Shown: positions 13,409 to 23,199 of the stretch, in pieces
How positions within the stretch are numbered: the first letter of the stretch is position 1
Layout of the letters: each line of letters starts with the position of its first letter
Assembly: GCA_963706195.1 (NCBI GenBank)
Contig: OY970156.1
Location: forward strand, 4,187,651 to 4,251,650
Direction of reading: 5' to 3'
From: an uncultured Pseudomonadota bacterium
GTDB taxonomy: Bacteria > Pseudomonadota > Alphaproteobacteria > Acetobacterales > Acetobacteraceae
DNA: 64,000 nucleotides
Translations under genes and position numbers: made by a program
Notes under the pieces: model-generated
Told to the model about the DNA's origin: nothing
The model's input: only the letters and a program-made list of their open reading frames with translations
The model's database searches: none

Positions 13409-14155
13409 ATGACATCCCAGGTTGTGCTCGTCACGGGGGCCCTGACCGGCATCGGCCGCGCCACCGCGTTCGCCTTCGCCCGCAAGGGCGCGCAGATCGT
13501 CGTCTCCGGCCGCCGCGACGAGGCCGGCGCGGCGCTGGCGCGCGAACTGAACGCGATCAGCGGGGCGGCGCACTATATCCGCGCCGACGTCCGCCATGAG
13601 GACGACGTGCGCGCCCTGGTCGAGGCGACCGTGGCGCGCTTCGGCCGGCTGGATGTGGCCGTCAACAACGCCGGCACCGAGGGCACGCCCGGCCCGGTGA
13701 CGGAACAAACCGCGGAGAGCTACGCGGCGACGTTCGACACCAACGTGCTCGGCACCGTGCTCAGCCTGAAGCACGAGATGCGCGTGATGGCGGCGCAGGG
13801 GCACGGCAGCATCATCAACCTGTCGTCCACGATGGGTCACAGTGCTGCGTCCGGCGCCTCGATCTACACCGCCAGCAAGCATGCGGTCGAAGGCCTGACC
13901 AAGGCGGCGGCGCTGGAAGGCGCGGCCTTCGGCGTGCGGGTCAACGCCGTCGCTCCCGGGCCGGTCGATACGGAGATGCTGACCCGCTTCACCGGCAGCC
14001 CCGACCGCAAGGCCGGGCTGATCGCCGGCGTGCCGGTCCGGCGGTCCGGGACGCCGGAGGAGATCGCGGGGGCGATCGTGTTCCTCGCCTCCGACCAGGC
14101 GTCGTTCGTCACCGGGCAGATCCTGTCGGTGGACGGCGGCAAGTCGGCGCAGTGA
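13409..14155 (+). CDS. Short-chain dehydrogenase/reductase (SDR)
   Basis: ATG 13409 with GAAGGAG upstream. TGALTGIGRA, NNAG and YTASKHAV (YxxxK) are present. Confidence 0.9.
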   Translation: MTSQVVLVTGALTGIGRATAFAFARKGAQIVVSGRRDEAGAALARELNAISGAAHYIRADVRHEDDVRALVEATVARFGRLDVAVNNAGTEGTPGPVTEQTAESYAATFDTNVLGTVLSLKHEMRVMAAQGHGSIINLSSTMGHSAASGASIYTASKHAVEGLTKAAALEGAAFGVRVNAVAPGPVDTEMLTRFTGSPDRKAGLIAGVPVRRSGTPEEIAGAIVFLASDQASFVTGQILSVDGGKSAQ

Positions 14156-14340
14156 AGGCGGGGCGCGCGCTCATAACACGGTCCCAAGCGGGCTATCCCG
14201 GCGCGCCTGACCTGAACCGCTGGGCGGCGCTCGCCGTGCTGCCGACGGGTGTGTTCCTGGCCCCGCATGATTTCTTCATCGGCAACGTGGCCCTGCCGTC
14301 GATCACGGGGGGCTGCGGGCGCGGCCCAGCGTCCGTCTGC
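14152..14340 (+). pseudogene. N-terminal fragment of a DHA2/EmrB-type MFS transporter
   Basis: ...NRWAALAVLPTGVFLAPHDFFIGNVALPSI... matches the conserved TM1 start of EmrB-like exporters. Only about 60 codons remain before the homology stops. Confidence 0.5.
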
Positions 14341-14634
14341 CTTTCGGACCGATGACCCGCAAGCAGCCAGTCCGCATCCGGCCACTCTCAGTCTGCCCAG
14401 CGCCCATCTCCGTCTTTCACGCGAACCGGAGCTTCGCCCAGAAGCGGATGTCGGTTTGGTCGCTTACCCGGCGCAGCGGGACCAGCAGCAATGAATACCA
14501 GCATGCACTGACGCCTCGGCCGTGATTGCGAGGCAAATCGAGTCCTGCCGGAGTTGGTCTGCTAGACGAAAGGGTCGGGGGGTGGAATAGTTCGCCGTCA
14601 ACAGGGGGCGGCGACGGTGGCAACAGGAAAAGAG

Positions 14635-16641
14635 ATGTCGCCGTCCGGCCAGGGGACGTTCTTCGACAGCCGTTTCCTCGGGCTTTACGCCGGTCCGATC
14701 ATGTCCGACCCGACCACCGCCCTGGTCGAACTGGTCGCTAACTCGTGGGATGCCTACGCGACCAAGGTCGAGATCACGTGGCCCGAGCGAGAGACCGGCG
14801 ATGTGTTCCAGATCCTGGACAACGGGATCGGCATGACCCCCAAGGAGTTCGAACAACGCTGGCGTACGATTTACTACGACCGCGCCAGCTGGCAGGGGCT
14901 GACCGTCAAGGCGCCACCCGAGATCCCGAATGGACCCATCCGGCATGTCTACGGCCGGAACGGCAAGGGGCGGACCGCAGGATTCCAGTTCTCGTCGTCT
15001 TACCGTGTTCGGACCTGGCGCGACGGTCGCGAGGCCACTTTTCTGGTCAAACAGGGTCTGACTGACCCGATAAATCCAAAGCTAGAGAAGGAGCGCGACG
15101 AGGTCCAGGGACACGGTACCCACATATCTGGGATCGAAACCCGCCGCATCCTCATGTCCGCGGAGCAAGCGCGGTCGGCCTTGAGCACCCGATTCCTAAC
15201 TGATCCCGCTTTTTCCGTGTCTGTGAACGGCGTTAAAGTAACATTCAATGACGTCCCGGTCGAATGCTTAGCGGAGATGGACGTCGCCGTACCCGACTTC
15301 GGGACGGCGCACCTCCAGGTCATCGACAGCCAGACCTCCGATCGGACCGTGAAGCAGCACGGACTCGCTTGGTGGGTGAACCGGCGACTGGTCGGACAGG
15401 TTGGTTGGCGTGGATCCGACCACGAGAAGATCGTCGACGGTCGCACGGAGGAGGCAAAGCGGTTCACGTTCATCGTGCAAGCCGACTTCCTGGAAGACTC
15501 CGTTGAAGCGGATTGGTCGGATTTCAGGGAAGACGATGCCGCCTGGAGGGCTACGCAGCCGCTCGTGCAAGCAGCCGTGCGGGAAAAATTCGGCCTGTTT
15601 ACCGCCAAGCGCCGGGCGGAGACGAGCGCATACGTCCGGAATACCTATCGCCGTCAGGTCGAAGCGATGCCGCTCATCAGCCGGTCGAGATGGGAGAAGT
15701 TTCTTGAACAGGTGGTCGTGCAGTGTCCCGGCATGGGCGAGCGGCAGATCATGCAATTGATGGGTATCCTGGCGACGTTAGAAACCTCAGAGTCGCAGTA
15801 CGCCATCCTCGAAAAACTTCATGGTTTCAAATCGGGTGAATTTGACGGGTGGAACTCGGTCCTGGAGTCGTGGACGATCCACGCCGCCAAGGTTGCGCTG
15901 GACGTCATTCGAGACCGTCTACGACTAATCGAGGAAATACGTGCGAGGGCGGCAGACCCGAACAGCGACGAGGTACAGCAGCTTCAACCCCTGTTCAAAA
16001 GCGGCCTCTGGATTTTCGGCCCTCAGTTCGAGGCGATAGAATTCACCTCCAACCAAACAATGAACTCGGTCGTGAAGAAGATTTACGACAAAAGGATGAA
16101 GGCCTCGAACAATCGGCCCGACTTCGCCGTCACTCCGGACAGTACCGTCGGGTGCTATTCAATGCCCGCCTGGGATAAAGATTTCGTCGAACGCGGAACT
16201 GCAACTCTCGTCATCGTCGAACTCAAGCGACCCGGCGTGCAGATCGGATCCGAAGAAAAGGAGCAGATATGGAAGTACGTGCGCGAGTTAAAAGAGCTGG
16301 GTCTCGTAACCGACACAACCAATGTCATTGGCTTCGTGCTGGGTGACCGGATACACCCTCAGGAGCAGGAAGACCGGACCTACGGTAAAAATGTCAGGGT
16401 CCAACCGATGCTCTACAGCGAATTCGTCAATCGGGCACAGGCCCGGATGCTTACGCTGCACGCCAAGCTGATCGACTCCCCCATGATGAAGGCAGCAATC
16501 GAAGAGTTCGCTAAGGTACCGGTCGTGCCAGTGCAGGACTCGCTTAGGCTCGTCGTAGAACCAAAGAAAAGAAGGAAATCGGAGGTGCCTCCGCTTTCGC
16601 TGCCATCTGCCGAAGGTCAGGAAGCTCCCGCCAGTCTCTAG
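14635..16641 (+). CDS. GHKL (HATPase_c_3/MORC-like) ATPase fused to a PD-(D/E)xK (Shedu/DUF4263-like) nuclease
   Basis: 668 aa from ATG 14635, with AGGAAAAGAG upstream. Bergerat motifs: VELVANSWDA (14725-14754), LDNGIGM (14815-14835), GRNGKG (14953-14970). C-terminal nuclease motifs: RPDF (D at 16120), VIVELKRPG (ExK at 16219-16227), QIWKY (16264-16278). The CDS call is firm. The functional call rests on motifs only. Confidence 0.8.
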   Translation: MSPSGQGTFFDSRFLGLYAGPIMSDPTTALVELVANSWDAYATKVEITWPERETGDVFQILDNGIGMTPKEFEQRWRTIYYDRASWQGLTVKAPPEIPNGPIRHVYGRNGKGRTAGFQFSSSYRVRTWRDGREATFLVKQGLTDPINPKLEKERDEVQGHGTHISGIETRRILMSAEQARSALSTRFLTDPAFSVSVNGVKVTFNDVPVECLAEMDVAVPDFGTAHLQVIDSQTSDRTVKQHGLAWWVNRRLVGQVGWRGSDHEKIVDGRTEEAKRFTFIVQADFLEDSVEADWSDFREDDAAWRATQPLVQAAVREKFGLFTAKRRAETSAYVRNTYRRQVEAMPLISRSRWEKFLEQVVVQCPGMGERQIMQLMGILATLETSESQYAILEKLHGFKSGEFDGWNSVLESWTIHAAKVALDVIRDRLRLIEEIRARAADPNSDEVQQLQPLFKSGLWIFGPQFEAIEFTSNQTMNSVVKKIYDKRMKASNNRPDFAVTPDSTVGCYSMPAWDKDFVERGTATLVIVELKRPGVQIGSEEKEQIWKYVRELKELGLVTDTTNVIGFVLGDRIHPQEQEDRTYGKNVRVQPMLYSEFVNRAQARMLTLHAKLIDSPMMKAAIEEFAKVPVVPVQDSLRLVVEPKKRRKSEVPPLSLPSAEGQEAPASL

Positions 16642-16719
16642 GGTGTGTCGTCATTTAGGGGATTCCCACGAAGGGAATTGCGTGATTCCTAACGGGTCAA
16701 CCGATTCGGAGGTTGACCT

Positions 16720-17091
16720 GTGCCCCGTTATGCCCTGCGCGATGATCAATGGGACCGCATTCGCGATCTGCTGCCAGGCCGGGAGGGCCACGTGGGCGTG
16801 ACGGCGGCGGATAATCGCCTGTTTGTGGAGGCGGTGCTCTATCGCTATCGGGCTGGCATTCCCTGGCGTGACCTGCCGGAACGCTTTGGTGATGGGGTGC
16901 AGGTGCACCGGCGCTTCAGCCGTTGGGCCAAATCAGGGGTCTGGGAACGCGTGTTCAAGGTGCTCGCCGCGGATGCCGACAATGAATACGCGATGATCGA
17001 CAGCACCATCGTACGCGCCCATCAGCACAGTGCCGGCGCCCAAAAAAAGCCGGCGAGGATCAGGCGATCGGACGATCCCGCGGCGGATTGA
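16720..17091 (+). CDS. IS transposase OrfA
   Basis: GTG start with GGAGG upstream. The N-terminal DUF4096-like block MPRYALRDDQWDRIRDLLPG is present. It ends just after the A-run. Confidence 0.85.
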   Translation: MPRYALRDDQWDRIRDLLPGREGHVGVTAADNRLFVEAVLYRYRAGIPWRDLPERFGDGVQVHRRFSRWAKSGVWERVFKVLAADADNEYAMIDSTIVRAHQHSAGAQKKPARIRRSDDPAAD

Positions 17092-17477
17092 GCACCAAGA
17101 TCCACGCCTTGGTCGATGCGCTCGGCAACCCGATCGGCTTCCACCTGACCGGCGGGCAGGCCCACGATCTGGTCGGGGCGGATCATCTGCTGCCCGGGAT
17201 GCAGGCCGACACCCTGATCGCCGACAAGGGCTTCGACGCCGATCAGCGCGTCATCAAACCGCTGCAAGCCGCCGGCAAAACAGCGGTCATCCCGCCCAGA
17301 GAGCATCGCCGCCTGCCGCGCGACTTCGACAGAGACCTCTATAAAGCGCGCCACCTGATCGAGAACTTCTTCGCCAAACTCAAGCAGTTCCGCGCAATCG
17401 CCACTCGCTACGACAAAACTGCCCGAAATTTCCTCGCCGCCATCCACTTGGCCGCCACAGCCATTTGGCTCAATTGA
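17088..17477 (+). CDS. IS transposase OrfB (DDE part, expressed as OrfAB by -1 frameshift)
   Basis: Slipping -1 at AAAAAAAG gives ...GAQKKAGEDQAIGRSRGGLSTKIHALVD..., the typical IS5-family junction. The DDE C-terminus YKARHLIENFFAKLKQFRAIATRYDK is present. Confidence 0.85.
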   Translation: MSTKIHALVDALGNPIGFHLTGGQAHDLVGADHLLPGMQADTLIADKGFDADQRVIKPLQAAGKTAVIPPREHRRLPRDFDRDLYKARHLIENFFAKLKQFRAIATRYDKTARNFLAAIHLAATAIWLN

Positions 17478-17695
17478 CGACACGCCCTAATATCGACACT
17501 CCGGCCCCCGAGCGCGACCCGCCGACCCGGCTTGCACCTACCCTCCTGCGACACAGAGAAATTCGTTAGAAGGTCTGGTTCTCGTCGTTGTTCACCCCAA
17601 AGCGGGCGTTCCGCTCTCGGCCATCATAAGACCGACTGTCGGGGGCCGCAGCGAACAGCGATATTCGCAGATGCCGCCGTGCCGCCCCGATGGAC

Positions 17696-20609: not shown

Positions 20610-21192
20610 GTGCGATCTCTGTGATGCGGAGGATGACGGCTCCGGCGGCGGTGCGGCTCGGGATTTGCTCGACGTGCATGTGCCATCCTTCCCGGGCAGC
20701 GGTCAATTCCGCGGCGGCTCCGGCGCCTTTGGGGAACAGCGCAACCCCGCCGGGGGCGAGCAGCGGGGCGGCCAGTTCCAGCAGACGGGGCAGGGGTGCG
20801 AGGGCGCGGGCGGTGACCAGGGGGGCCAGGGGCAGGGCGGCGGCTTCGATCCGGACCGCGTGCACCTGGGCCGGAGCACCCAGGACCCGGGCGGCCTCGC
20901 GGAGGAACGCCGCCTTGCGCTGGTCCGCCTCGATCAGGTCGAACGGGATGCCGGTGGCGGCGGCAAGTACCAGCCCAGGGAACCCGGCGCCGGAGCCGAG
21001 GTCGATCCCCCGGGTGGTCCCCGCCGGAATCAGCGGCACCAGTTGCAGCGCATCCGCCAGGTGGCGGTCGGCCGCGTGGGCGATATCGCCGCGGCCGATC
21101 AGGTTGATGGTGCGGTTCCAGCGCTCCAGCAGCGCCAGATAGGGGGCGAATGCTTCACGTGAAGCATTGTTCGATATCGAAGAATGCTTCAC
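20590..21192 (-). CDS. rsmG: 16S rRNA m7G527 methyltransferase RsmG (GidB)
   Basis: ...YLALLERWNRTINL... and the SAM motif IDLGSGAGFPGLVLA are present. The proposed GTG start and first 14 codons lie inside a parS super-palindrome, so the start is uncertain. Confidence 0.85.
   Translation of the reverse strand: MKHSSISNNASREAFAPYLALLERWNRTINLIGRGDIAHAADRHLADALQLVPLIPAGTTRGIDLGSGAGFPGLVLAAATGIPFDLIEADQRKAAFLREAARVLGAPAQVHAVRIEAAALPLAPLVTARALAPLPRLLELAAPLLAPGGVALFPKGAGAAAELTAAREGWHMHVEQIPSRTAAGAVILRITEIARAPARP
21151..21166. promoter_or_regulatory. parS-like site 1
   Basis: TGCTTCACGTGAAGCA is a perfect 16-bp palindrome. It differs from canonical parS TGTTTCACGTGAAACA at the symmetric positions 3 and 14. 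Confidence 0.7.
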
Positions 21193-21200
21193 GTGAAGCG
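21185..21200. promoter_or_regulatory. parS-like site 2
   Basis: TGCTTCACGTGAAGCG (15 of 16 palindromic). Confidence 0.65.
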
Positions 21201-21291
21201 CTCCGGGATGGCCGCTGGCGGGATCGGCGCGCCCCGGTGGTTGGGGGCAAACGGCGGCGCGAGAAGTCTATCAGGGCCGCCGCGAATCGAC

Positions 21292-21307
21292 CGCTTCACG
21301 TGAAGCA
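21292..21307. promoter_or_regulatory. parS-like site 3
   Basis: CGCTTCACGTGAAGCA. Confidence 0.65.
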
Positions 21308-21325
21308 TTCTTCGATATCGAACAA

Positions 21326-21341
21326 TGCTTCACGTGAAGCG
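21326..21341. promoter_or_regulatory. parS-like site 4
   Basis: TGCTTCACGTGAAGCG. The mnmG stop codon TGA lies inside its CACGTGA core. Confidence 0.65.
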
Positions 21342-23199
21342 GTCCGCGACACCCCATCGGCGGAGGTGTGCGGCCAGGGTCGCCAGGGCCGCCGGGGTGA
21401 CCCCCTCCAGCCGGGATGCCGCCCCGAGGGAGGCGGGTCGGCTCTGGATCAACCGTGCCCGGACCTCCGCCGATAATCCGGGCACCTGCTCGAACGGGAC
21501 GGCGGCGAGGGACAGGTCCTCGGTCCGCCGGAAGGCTCGCATCTCGGCGATCTGGCGGGGGAGGTAGCCCTGGTATAGCGCTTCCGTTCGGAGGTGGGCG
21601 GCCACCCGTGGCGGGAGGTCCCGCAACCACGGGAAGGCGGCGGCCAGCGCCGCCTGGGGCACGGCGTCCGAGCCCAGCAGGTCCAGGACCGAGCGGCGGC
21701 GGCCGTCGGCCCGCACCTCGATTCCGCGTCGGGCCAGGTCGGTGGGCAGGCCGCCCTCGACGCCGGCGCGGTCCTTCGCGGCGGCGACGGCGGCGGCGTA
21801 GGCGCCGAAATGGCGCGCCCGCTCGGGGCCGACGCAGCCCCAGGCCAAGCCGATCGGGGTGAGACGGTGGTCGGCATTGTCCGCCCGCAAGGTCAGCCGG
21901 AACTCGGAGCGGGAGGTGAACATGCGGTAGGGCTCGGTCACCCCGCGCAGGGTCAGGTCGTCGATCAGGACGCCGATATAGGCCTCCGACCGGTCGAGAC
22001 CCACTGGAGACGTGCCGCCCGCGCGGCGGGCGGCATTGATGCCGGCGATCAGGCCCTGGGCGGCAGCTTCCTCGTAGCCGGTGGTGCCGTTGATCTGGCC
22101 GGCGAGGAACAGGCCGGGGACCGCGCGGACCTCCAGCGACCGCGTCAAGGCGCGGGGGTCTACATAATCGTACTCGACCGCGTAGCCGGGGCGGAGCATC
22201 TCGCGCCCGCTCCAGGCCCGGGATGGTGTGCAGCAGCGCGCGCTGGATATCCTCCGGTAAACTGGTTGAGATTCCGTTGGGATAGACGGTCGGATCGTCC
22301 AGACCCTCGGGTTCCAGGAAAATCTGGTGGCGGGCGCGGTCGGGGAAGCGCGTCACCTTGTCCTCGATGGAGGGGCAGTAGCGCGGGCCGCGACCGGAAA
22401 TCGCGCCGCCGTAAACTGCGGAGCGGTGCAGGTTGGCGCGGATCAGGGCGTGCGTCGCCTCGGTGGTGGCGGTCACCCGGCAGGCGATCTGGGGGGTCGC
22501 GATGCGCTCGGTCAGGGGGCTGAAGGGCTCGGGAGGGTCGTCGCCGCGGTCCTCGGGCAGGCTGTCCCAGGCGATGCTGGCGCGGTGCAGCCGGGGGGGG
22601 GTGCCGGTCTTCAGGCGGCCGAGCGGGAGGTTCAGGCGGGCCAGGGTGTGCGCCAGGCCGATCGATGGGGCCTCGCCGACCCGTCCGGCCGGGGTCTGGG
22701 TGGTGCCGATATGGACCATGCCGCGCAGGAAGGTGCCGGTGGTCAGGACCGCCGCGGCGCAGGGGTGGCGGGCGCCGTCGGCCGTGCGGACCGCGGCCAG
22801 GCTGCCATCCGGGGCGAGTTCCAGGTCTTCGACCGCGGCTTCGGCGATGGTGAGGTTCGGGGTCTCGGCCAGCAGGTCCTGGATGGCGGCGCGATACAGG
22901 GCGCGGTCGGCCTGGGCGCGCGGGCCGCGGACCGCGGGGCCCTTGCTGCGGTTCAGGAGCTTGAAATGGATCCCCGCCCGGTCGGCGGCGCGGGCCATCA
23001 GGCCGTCCAGCGCGTCGATCTCCCGCACCAGGTGGCCCTTGCCGATGCCGCCGATGGCGGGGTTGCAGGACATCTCCCCGATCGTGGCGCGGCGATGGGT
23101 GAGCAGGAGGGTGCGCGCGCCCATGCGGGCGGCAGCGGCGGCGGCCTCCGTGCCGGCGTGGCCGCCGCCGATGACGATGACGTCGTAGGGGAGGGGCAT
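21330..23199 (-). CDS. mnmG: tRNA uridine-5-carboxymethylaminomethyl synthesis enzyme MnmG (GidA), one frameshift
   Basis: FAD motif [14 protein letters not shown]. The N-terminal part is in one frame (about 22204-23199) and the C-terminal 289 aa in another (21330-22199). The junction is ...IPGLERA / [12 protein letters not shown] near 22203. Confidence 0.9.

Follow-up and report, generated by a model that had tools for sequence, protein, structure and literature searches.

The window considered here is a 64,000 nucleotide (nt) stretch of contig OY970156.1 (assembly GCA_963706195.1, positions 4,187,651 to 4,251,650 of the forward strand) from an uncultured bacterium of the Acetobacteraceae. 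Between the remnant of a transporter gene and an insertion sequence it carries, on its plus strand, a gene in which a GHKL ATPase and a nuclease are joined. The coding sequence, present in the list of open reading frames (ORFs), extends from GTG at 14617 or ATG at 14635 to 16641, with TAG at 16639-16641 as its stop codon, and its product has 674 or 668 amino acids (aa). It is intact, and the motifs named in the original prediction for this locus, made from the letters and the ORF list, are all where that prediction put them. One chain holds a GHKL ATPase and a PD-(D/E)xK nuclease, both predicted to be catalytically complete, with a transducer domain and a helical linker between them. The gene quite probably encodes an immune nuclease that acts on its own and belongs to the paraMORC3 / GHKL-type Shedu (type 1D) class. 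At present it, along with hundreds of relatives, is annotated just as 'ATP-binding protein' or 'hypothetical'. Residue numbers are counted from ATG 14635 throughout, and all coordinates of its domains refer to the plus strand.

The GHKL (Bergerat-fold) ATPase domain occupies residues ~11-170 (14665..15144), as delimited by Pfam, motif conservation and modelling. Pfam HATPase_c_3 matches residues 27-135 (E 4.2e-17). The three Bergerat motifs from which an ATPase of the MORC/MutL/Hsp90 kind had been proposed are where they were read: VELVANSWDA is residues 31-40 (14725-14754), LDNGIGM is residues 61-67 (14815-14835) and GRNGKG is residues 107-112 (14953-14970). They supply GHKL motifs I (E32-xxx-N36-xx-D39), II (D62-x-G64-x-G66) and III (G107-xx-G110-x-G112), and motif IV is G161-T162. 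In an AlphaFold2 model of the full protein, built from 47 homologues, the predicted local distance difference test score (pLDDT) has a mean of 77 and is ~88-94 across most of the GHKL domain. The best Foldseek matches of this model are MORC4, MORC2, TRAP1/Hsp90 and MutL LN40 (E 3e-13 to 1e-11). The alignments are 340-460 columns long and run beyond GHKL to take in the S5-like transducer domain. When the PDB was searched by sequence, with the protein and with a full-length profile, it yielded MutL, PMS and Hsp90, in each case through the GHKL region only. [A hypothetical protein of Yersinia phage P37 (MT239398.1 / NC_070907.1, 1510-2121) matches the window protein in the GHKL region only, over residues 10-199 at 30% identity (E 2e-13).]

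Some 300 residues between the ATPase and the nuclease had been described as being without a recognisable motif. That description does not hold: the first ~125 of them are the GHKL-associated transducer domain, and a helical region follows. Residues ~175-300 (15157..15534, with a putative boundary) are strand-rich with pLDDT mostly 80-95, and in the model they correspond to the beta-rich S5/transducer, or 'middle', domain of MORC, Hsp90 and MutL. The fold of the first ~300 residues, GHKL plus transducer, is thus one that the window protein has in common with these ATPases, though the identity is just 11-15%. What comes after it differs. The window protein has PD-(D/E)xK in place of the endonuclease/dimerisation domain of MutL, the CW and coiled-coil regions of MORC and the C-terminal domain of Hsp90. 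The helical linker or bundle takes up residues ~302-440 (15538..15954) in the predicted secondary structure, with long helices at 302-337, 347-384 and 400-440. W413 and R428 are conserved within it, and it aligns with its equivalent in a sister clade described below. By analogy with the model of VcSduA, a characterised protein of the same architecture, it may have a clamp or dimerisation role.

The PD-(D/E)xK (restriction-endonuclease fold) domain spans residues ~444-627 (15964..16515), as judged from conservation, Foldseek and hhalign. Its motif set is E446, P495-D496, E529-x-K531 and Q544-xxx-Y548. RPDF is residues 494-497, with the D496 codon at 16120; E529-x-K531 is encoded at 16219-16227 and Q544-xxx-Y548 at 16264-16278. 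GHKL matches filled the Foldseek list for the whole protein, and the nuclease domain was therefore modelled separately. The resulting model is of moderate confidence (pLDDT 76.7). Its best Foldseek matches, Nt.BspD6I, FokI, MspJI, McrC, Can2 and NucS/EndoMS, are all PD-(D/E)xK folds, and the top one is Nt.BspD6I (E 2.5e-3, probability 1.0). These restriction-type matches and the conservation of the catalytic residues bear out the nuclease set of RPDF, E-x-K and QxxxY that had been read from the letters. The Pfam families that had been expected at the two ends are found in part: HATPase_c_3 is present at the N-terminus, but the nuclease-family matches, HSDR_N_2 (E 0.013) and SduA_C, are below threshold. 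A homologue search with the C-terminal domain alone retrieved fragments of the same family only, and no proteins with other N-terminal domains. Beyond the nuclease is a C-terminal tail (residues 629-668; 16519..16638) that is predicted to be disordered (pLDDT <50) and is poorly conserved, its length and sequence varying in the alignment.

The family is large, with more than 600 homologues of full length. A library clustered at 90% identity yielded more than 600 relatives, and one clustered at 50% identity yielded 1336 clusters at E <=1e-3 and 302 at E <=1e-30; the best 150 of these 302 are mostly full length, at 620-690 aa. The hosts are alpha- and betaproteobacteria, with one acidobacterial metagenome-assembled genome (MAG). 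Conservation was assessed with 69 representatives at 27-46% identity. Invariant in all 69 are E32, N36, D39, D62, G64, G66, G110 and G112 in the ATPase half and D496, K531 and Y548 in the nuclease half; G107, G161, T162, E446, P495, E529 and Q544 are kept in at least 90%. The motifs are thus beyond chance, the acidic and lysine residues of the nuclease are conserved among homologues, and both enzymatic centres are under selection. Across the window and sister clades together, where identity goes down to ~20%, E446, D496, E529, K531, Q544 and Y548 are invariant.

The original prediction could assign this exact fusion to no named system. Two names fit it, paraMORC3 and GHKL-class Shedu type 1D, and there is a validated member, VcSduA. 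The window gene is a new, divergent member of a known immune-gene class. paraMORC3 was described as GHKL plus S5 plus a C-terminal domain of restriction-endonuclease (RE) fold with E-D-ExK (Iyer, Abhiman & Aravind 2008, Biol Direct 3:8, PMC2292703). By that account it is widespread among proteobacteria and Bacteroidetes, spreads laterally and in many cases stands alone. The same authors placed paraMORCs in restriction-modification (R-M) contexts, stressing links with superfamily II (SFII) helicases and methylases, and speculated that stand-alone paraMORC3 may have gained functions independent of R-M. Intact GHKL motifs, S5/transducer, C-terminal RE-fold E-D-ExK and a patchy, mobile, stand-alone occurrence are all found with the window protein, its membership resting on features, as the family is known by description. 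The SFII helicase link appears in the sister clade and not in the window clade.

The second name comes from studies of Shedu. Its type 1D has enzymatic N-terminal domains that include GHKL, with HATPase_c_3 followed by an Hsp90/MORC-like middle domain (Gu et al. 2023, 10.1101/2023.08.10.552793), and this arrangement before the nuclease is also that of the window protein. VcSduA (A1552VC_00276), a GHKL plus DUF4263 protein of Vibrio cholerae VSP-II(WASA) for which 543 homologues are listed, has been assigned to Shedu type I-D (Adams et al. 2025, Nat Microbiol, PMC12137116). In E. coli it confers protection from Drexlerviridae and in V. cholerae from phage X29, and its defence is abolished by E27A in the ATPase or K557A in the nuclease. 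Protection is seen at all multiplicities of infection, and so it is not abortive. In a confident dimer model two VcSduA chains are entwined and the middle domain resembles a clamp; a tetramer model is poorly supported (PMC12137116). Both VcSduA and the window protein are single chains with N-terminal GHKL (motifs I-IV), a middle region and C-terminal PD-(D/E)xK, and both genes stand alone on an acquired island. E27 and K557 correspond in role to window residues E32 and K531; from the motif I glutamate to the nuclease lysine there are 530 residues in VcSduA and 499 in the window protein. The VcSduA nuclease is reported as DUF4263, whereas that of the window protein is under the Pfam cutoff, and VcSduA is experimentally validated while the window protein is known from sequence and models alone. 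Canonical SduA (B. cereus type 1A; E. coli) is likewise an immune nuclease made of one protein, in which a regulatory or sensor module at the N-terminus is joined to a PD-(D/E)xK core. There the N-terminus is of the sPC4/Whirly type or a DNA-end clamp, and in the window protein it is an ATPase. Canonical Shedu is non-abortive and senses free DNA ends through its unrelated N-terminal domain (Gu et al. 2023; Loeff et al. 2023); it assembles into homotetramers or octamers, in contrast to the dimers modelled for VcSduA-type proteins.

On the GHKL paradigm and the example of VcSduA, the window protein would form dimers by way of its ATPase domains, like other GHKL enzymes. A clamp made of the middle and helical regions would be gated as ATP is bound and hydrolysed, and this clamp would govern how the nuclease domains at the C-terminus gain access or pair. 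Foreign (phage) DNA would be cut and the host would survive, giving direct, non-abortive protection. A second, divergent, solitary clade, next to VcSduA, gives a comparative handle on how GHKL gates an immune nuclease.

Several results weigh against this placement. Pfam SduA_C scores 13.2 bits on the window protein (E 0.1) against a cutoff of 27, and PADLOC SduA gives no match to it. In the fold search with the moderate-confidence domain model, B. cereus Shedu (8ti8_D) is only at rank 44, with E 0.26 and a TM score of 0.32-0.36. A PDB search with a profile of the nuclease domains of both clades did not find solved SduA, or any nuclease at all. The tie to VcSduA is one of architecture and Pfam families in common, not of direct alignment, and the dimer and clamp mechanism derives from a published AlphaFold3 prediction of VcSduA and not from an experimental structure. 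Lastly, some homologues (in Azospirillum, in Hyphomonas and on a 3.9-Mb metagenomic contig) are among ordinary or housekeeping genes with no other defence gene nearby.

The nuclease had been called Shedu-like, and this is borne out only indirectly. With the nuclease domain alone SduA_C rises to 16.4 bits (E 0.01), still below 27; the weak alignment to the window protein covers profile positions 2-73, with the order E…PD…ExK…QxxxY in common. Within the clade SduA_C is found at E <=0.1 in only 4 of the 69 members, and PADLOC SduA matches 15 of them, at best with E 2e-4. What stands of the Shedu claim comes by way of a sister clade of 586-aa proteins that was found through a plasmid search (e.g. 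S. meliloti WP_088217884.1, A. pusense and Martelella). These have HATPase_c_3, and SduA_C just over its cutoff (27.9-28.2 bits), and the NCBI name of one of them is Shedu SduA domain-containing protein. With hhalign the window clade aligns to the 586-aa protein over 560 columns at ~22% identity (probability 100%, E 1.6e-43). The nuclease domains alone also align (99.1%, E 5e-19), with RPDF/RPDL, ELKR/EFKR and QxxxY in register. The sister clade is ~80 residues shorter and collinear, with the same ATPase and nuclease motifs. The window clade is thus homologous from end to end to proteins above the SduA_C cutoff; its link to Shedu is transitive and not direct, and the kinship is remote.

At the two plasmid loci examined, the sister-clade gene is divergent beside a ResIII/DEAD helicase, whereas window-clade genes are solitary. 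The helicase, a ResIII/DEAD-box protein of 841 aa, is present on an S. meliloti plasmid (L012, 3027-7779) and on an A. pusense plasmid (L015, 1956-6686). The pairing echoes the linkage of paraMORC with SFII helicase and could represent a version of the system with two genes.

The restriction-type fold matches also bear on another possibility: an orphan GHKL-containing type II restriction enzyme like BbrUII/HgiDII, or a modification-dependent (type IV-like) enzyme, which would recognise a sequence or a modification and not an infection-specific DNA structure. This is unlikely, albeit with several results in its favour. BbrUII/HgiDII enzymes (NCBIfam NF050001) are of similar length (~660 aa) and have a related N-terminal GHKL ATPase. 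NCBIfam restrict_BbrUII scores 104 bits on the window protein (E 7e-30), and PADLOC REase_II matches it (E 2.6e-9) and 65 of the 69 clade members. Nt.BspD6I, FokI, MspJI and McrC lead the fold matches of the nuclease domain, and R-M contexts were those in which paraMORCs were placed (PMC2292703). However, the BbrUII score is far from its cutoff of 550 bits, with the best stretch at residues 27-207 (GHKL) only, and the REase_II matches are limited to residues ~20-140. BbrUII/HgiDII enzymes work with a cognate methyltransferase. None is beside the window gene: no DNA methyltransferase is present among the Pfam-annotated genes within ~8-10 kb at 7 annotated loci, or at 10-22 kb of the window. With no methyltransferase or other conserved partner up to 6 kb away at any of 16 loci, a classical R-M pair is ruled out. 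For a modification-dependent enzyme a methylase is superfluous, and this variant is therefore compatible with the solitary gene; it overlaps the preferred reading of a GHKL-type immune nuclease, since it would still be a defence nuclease.

The nuclease domain looks nearer to FokI/Nt.BspD6I-type cleavage domains than to solved Shedu, and so the clade may differ from tetrameric Shedu. Rather doubtfully, the window clade could be a large solitary GHKL-nuclease branch that Shedu detectors miss and that possibly has a distinct mechanism, in which ATP-driven GHKL dimerisation would unite a pair of cleavage domains on the DNA that has been captured. If so, the GHKL-gated nuclease class would greatly exceed in number the 278 instances of type 1D on record. 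The window protein and its relatives are below the Shedu thresholds of both Pfam and PADLOC. Defence censuses probably undercount the GHKL-nuclease class, and a profile built from the window clade would close this annotation gap.

Which codon starts the gene was judged from the two closest genomic homologues (L004 and L005, 80-81% identity). ATG 14635, the start that was first given, is replaced in them by ACG and ATA. The codon at 14617 is GTG in the window and GTG and ATG in the two homologues, and in all three AGGGGG or AGGGAG is conserved 8 nt 5′ of it. GTG 14617 is more likely to be the true start, and given this conservation of start codon and Shine-Dalgarno-like sequence the protein is probably 674 aa long. 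A look-up of the exact protein, as 668 aa and as 674 aa, matched no record. The Shine-Dalgarno-like AGGGGG is at 14603-14608. Upstream of it, and also conserved in the three, is a promoter-like element, TAGACG (14563-14568) and AATAGT (14586-14591) with a 17-nt spacer; the whole takes up 14563..14608 on the plus strand. This element is a putative promoter. A consensus promoter scan upstream of the gene gave no call, missing it because only 8 of its 12 positions match. The same scan gave two terminator-like matches, both within the ORF on the opposite strand.

The stretch common to the window and the two homologues is 14549-16640, i.e. the gene and ~85 nt upstream. The flanks are unrelated. The gene with its promoter-like region moves horizontally as a cassette of ~2.1 kb, and the claim that it was acquired is upheld by this, only the gene and those ~85 nt being common to close homologues.

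A lower-GC patch with a truncated host gene on one side and an insertion sequence (IS) on the other had been reported around the gene, and all three are there. GC falls from ~0.70 to 0.54-0.63 over 14250-16750. At the left edge of the insertion is the remnant of a major facilitator superfamily (MFS) transporter gene (14152..14355, plus strand), an ORF of only 67 aa in which ~50 N-terminal codons are left. It was identified by tblastn of a 33-aa core, which matched 80 plasmid records at 67-73% identity, those among the matches listed all being annotated as MFS transporter; a Pfam scan of the stub, so short a piece, gave no match. On the right is an IS of the IS5 family (16642..17488, plus strand) with Pfam matches to DUF4096 (E 1e-26) and DDE_Tnp_1 (E 9e-17). 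Its terminal inverted repeats are GGGTGTGTCGTCA and TGACGACACGCCC. It has a TA target duplication, and its insertion point coincides with the stop codon of the nuclease gene, which would have been TAA before the insertion and is TAG after it. The IS is context, outside the system. (Its transposase ORFs overlap, 16720-17091 and 17088-17477, and an A-run at ~17042-17048 suggests programmed frameshifting.) A prophage location was considered for the window copy and rejected, as host genes flank it.

With a truncated gene and an IS for flanks, and no promoter that passes the consensus scan, one might think of a passenger gene, decaying or without function, in a dead mobile element. This is very improbable. 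The ORF is intact, with no catalytic residue lost from either enzymatic domain. The natural C-terminus is kept (…QEAPASL, as in P0006), the IS being after the last sense codon with a stop codon left in place, and the promoter-like element and Shine-Dalgarno sequence are conserved with homologues. For the source genome the gene is an ordinary, recently acquired, single-gene defence candidate.

Does the gene work with a partner? In an all-against-all comparison of ORFs up to 6 kb from the gene at 16 loci, no flanking gene family is present in more than two. The gene therefore works alone, as had been claimed, and a two-gene system was rejected for want of a conserved neighbour. (A genome-wide scan with the single protein as query was made, giving 8 loci.) The defence-island setting that had also been claimed is true of some homologues and not of others. 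Homologue islands carry Gabija-like AAA_21 and UvrD genes, Mrr and AbiE; in another are AbiTii, resolvases and an integrase. One homologue is next to an AAA_15/21 ATPase pair and one adjoins an integrase fragment. Others are on rhizobial, agrobacterial and Azospirillum plasmids, and ~20 IMG/VR viral contigs have a homologue, mostly a few kb from the contig end. Among those with housekeeping neighbours, the Azospirillum homologue is between ptsN and a methyltransferase gene. Overall, the pattern of contexts is that of a self-contained accessory or defence gene, unlike that of a housekeeping gene.

These contexts also bear on whether the protein is a factor for DNA repair or recombination, a MutL-like ATPase with its own nuclease that serves genome maintenance. 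The published speculation on R-M-independent stand-alone paraMORC3 (PMC2292703) goes in that direction, as do the several homologues among housekeeping genes, the RusA gene that follows the homologue in Rhizobium lentis and on the Agrobacterium Ti plasmid, and the LigD and ImuA/ImuB/DnaE2 genes that are also near the Ti-plasmid homologue. Such a function is nonetheless improbable. The distribution is patchy, and flanks are unrelated even between copies that are 80% identical. The window copy is in an island of low GC with a truncated gene at one edge and an IS at the other, and homologues are on plasmids, on viral contigs and in defence and mobile islands. RusA is a neighbour in just 2 related loci of the 16. 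The sole tested protein of the same architecture, VcSduA, is an anti-phage factor.

Several neighbours of homologues deserve mention in their own right. The same convergent gene pair comes after the homologue in Rhizobium lentis (L003, 10031-11130) and on Agrobacterium pTi (L013, 7936-9032), and is absent from the other 14 loci. Its products are a 217-aa protein of AHJR-like/HepT-like type and a 148-aa RusA resolvase, and the pair could reflect either common island ancestry or a functional link. Homologues in Azospirillum largimobile (L001) and in a proteobacterial MAG (L005) are each a few kb from rpoN-hpf (sigma-54 and ribosome hibernation factor). The two are only distantly related to one another, and rpoN-hpf may be a recurrent integration spot. 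In a member of the Dongiaceae (L021, 10001-11937) and at a further locus (L022), the gene directly downstream of the homologue is for an AAA_15/AAA_21 (SMC_N/OLD-like) ATPase of 425 aa. It overlaps a gene for a 220-aa protein that has no Pfam match, and this pair looks like a separate two-gene defence candidate.

Elsewhere in the window, a composite palindrome of ~48 nt is present in two copies (21150-21200 and 21293-21342), around the start of rsmG and the stop of mnmG. Its form is GCTTCACGTGAAGC-ATTsTTCGATATCGAAsAAT-GCTTCACGTGAAGC, and its core, TTCACGTGAA, has 4 occurrences against 0.03 expected. It could be similar to repetitive extragenic palindromic (REP) sequences or to miniature inverted-repeat transposable elements (MITEs), or be a regulatory or origin-proximal site. 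The mnmG (gidA) gene itself (21271-23199, minus strand) is seemingly frameshifted at ~22190-22210. In one frame, …TIPGLERA is followed by Pro/Arg-rich nonsense, and the expected sequence resumes in the next frame, which is either due to a sequencing error in a GC-rich run or indicative of a genuine pseudogene.

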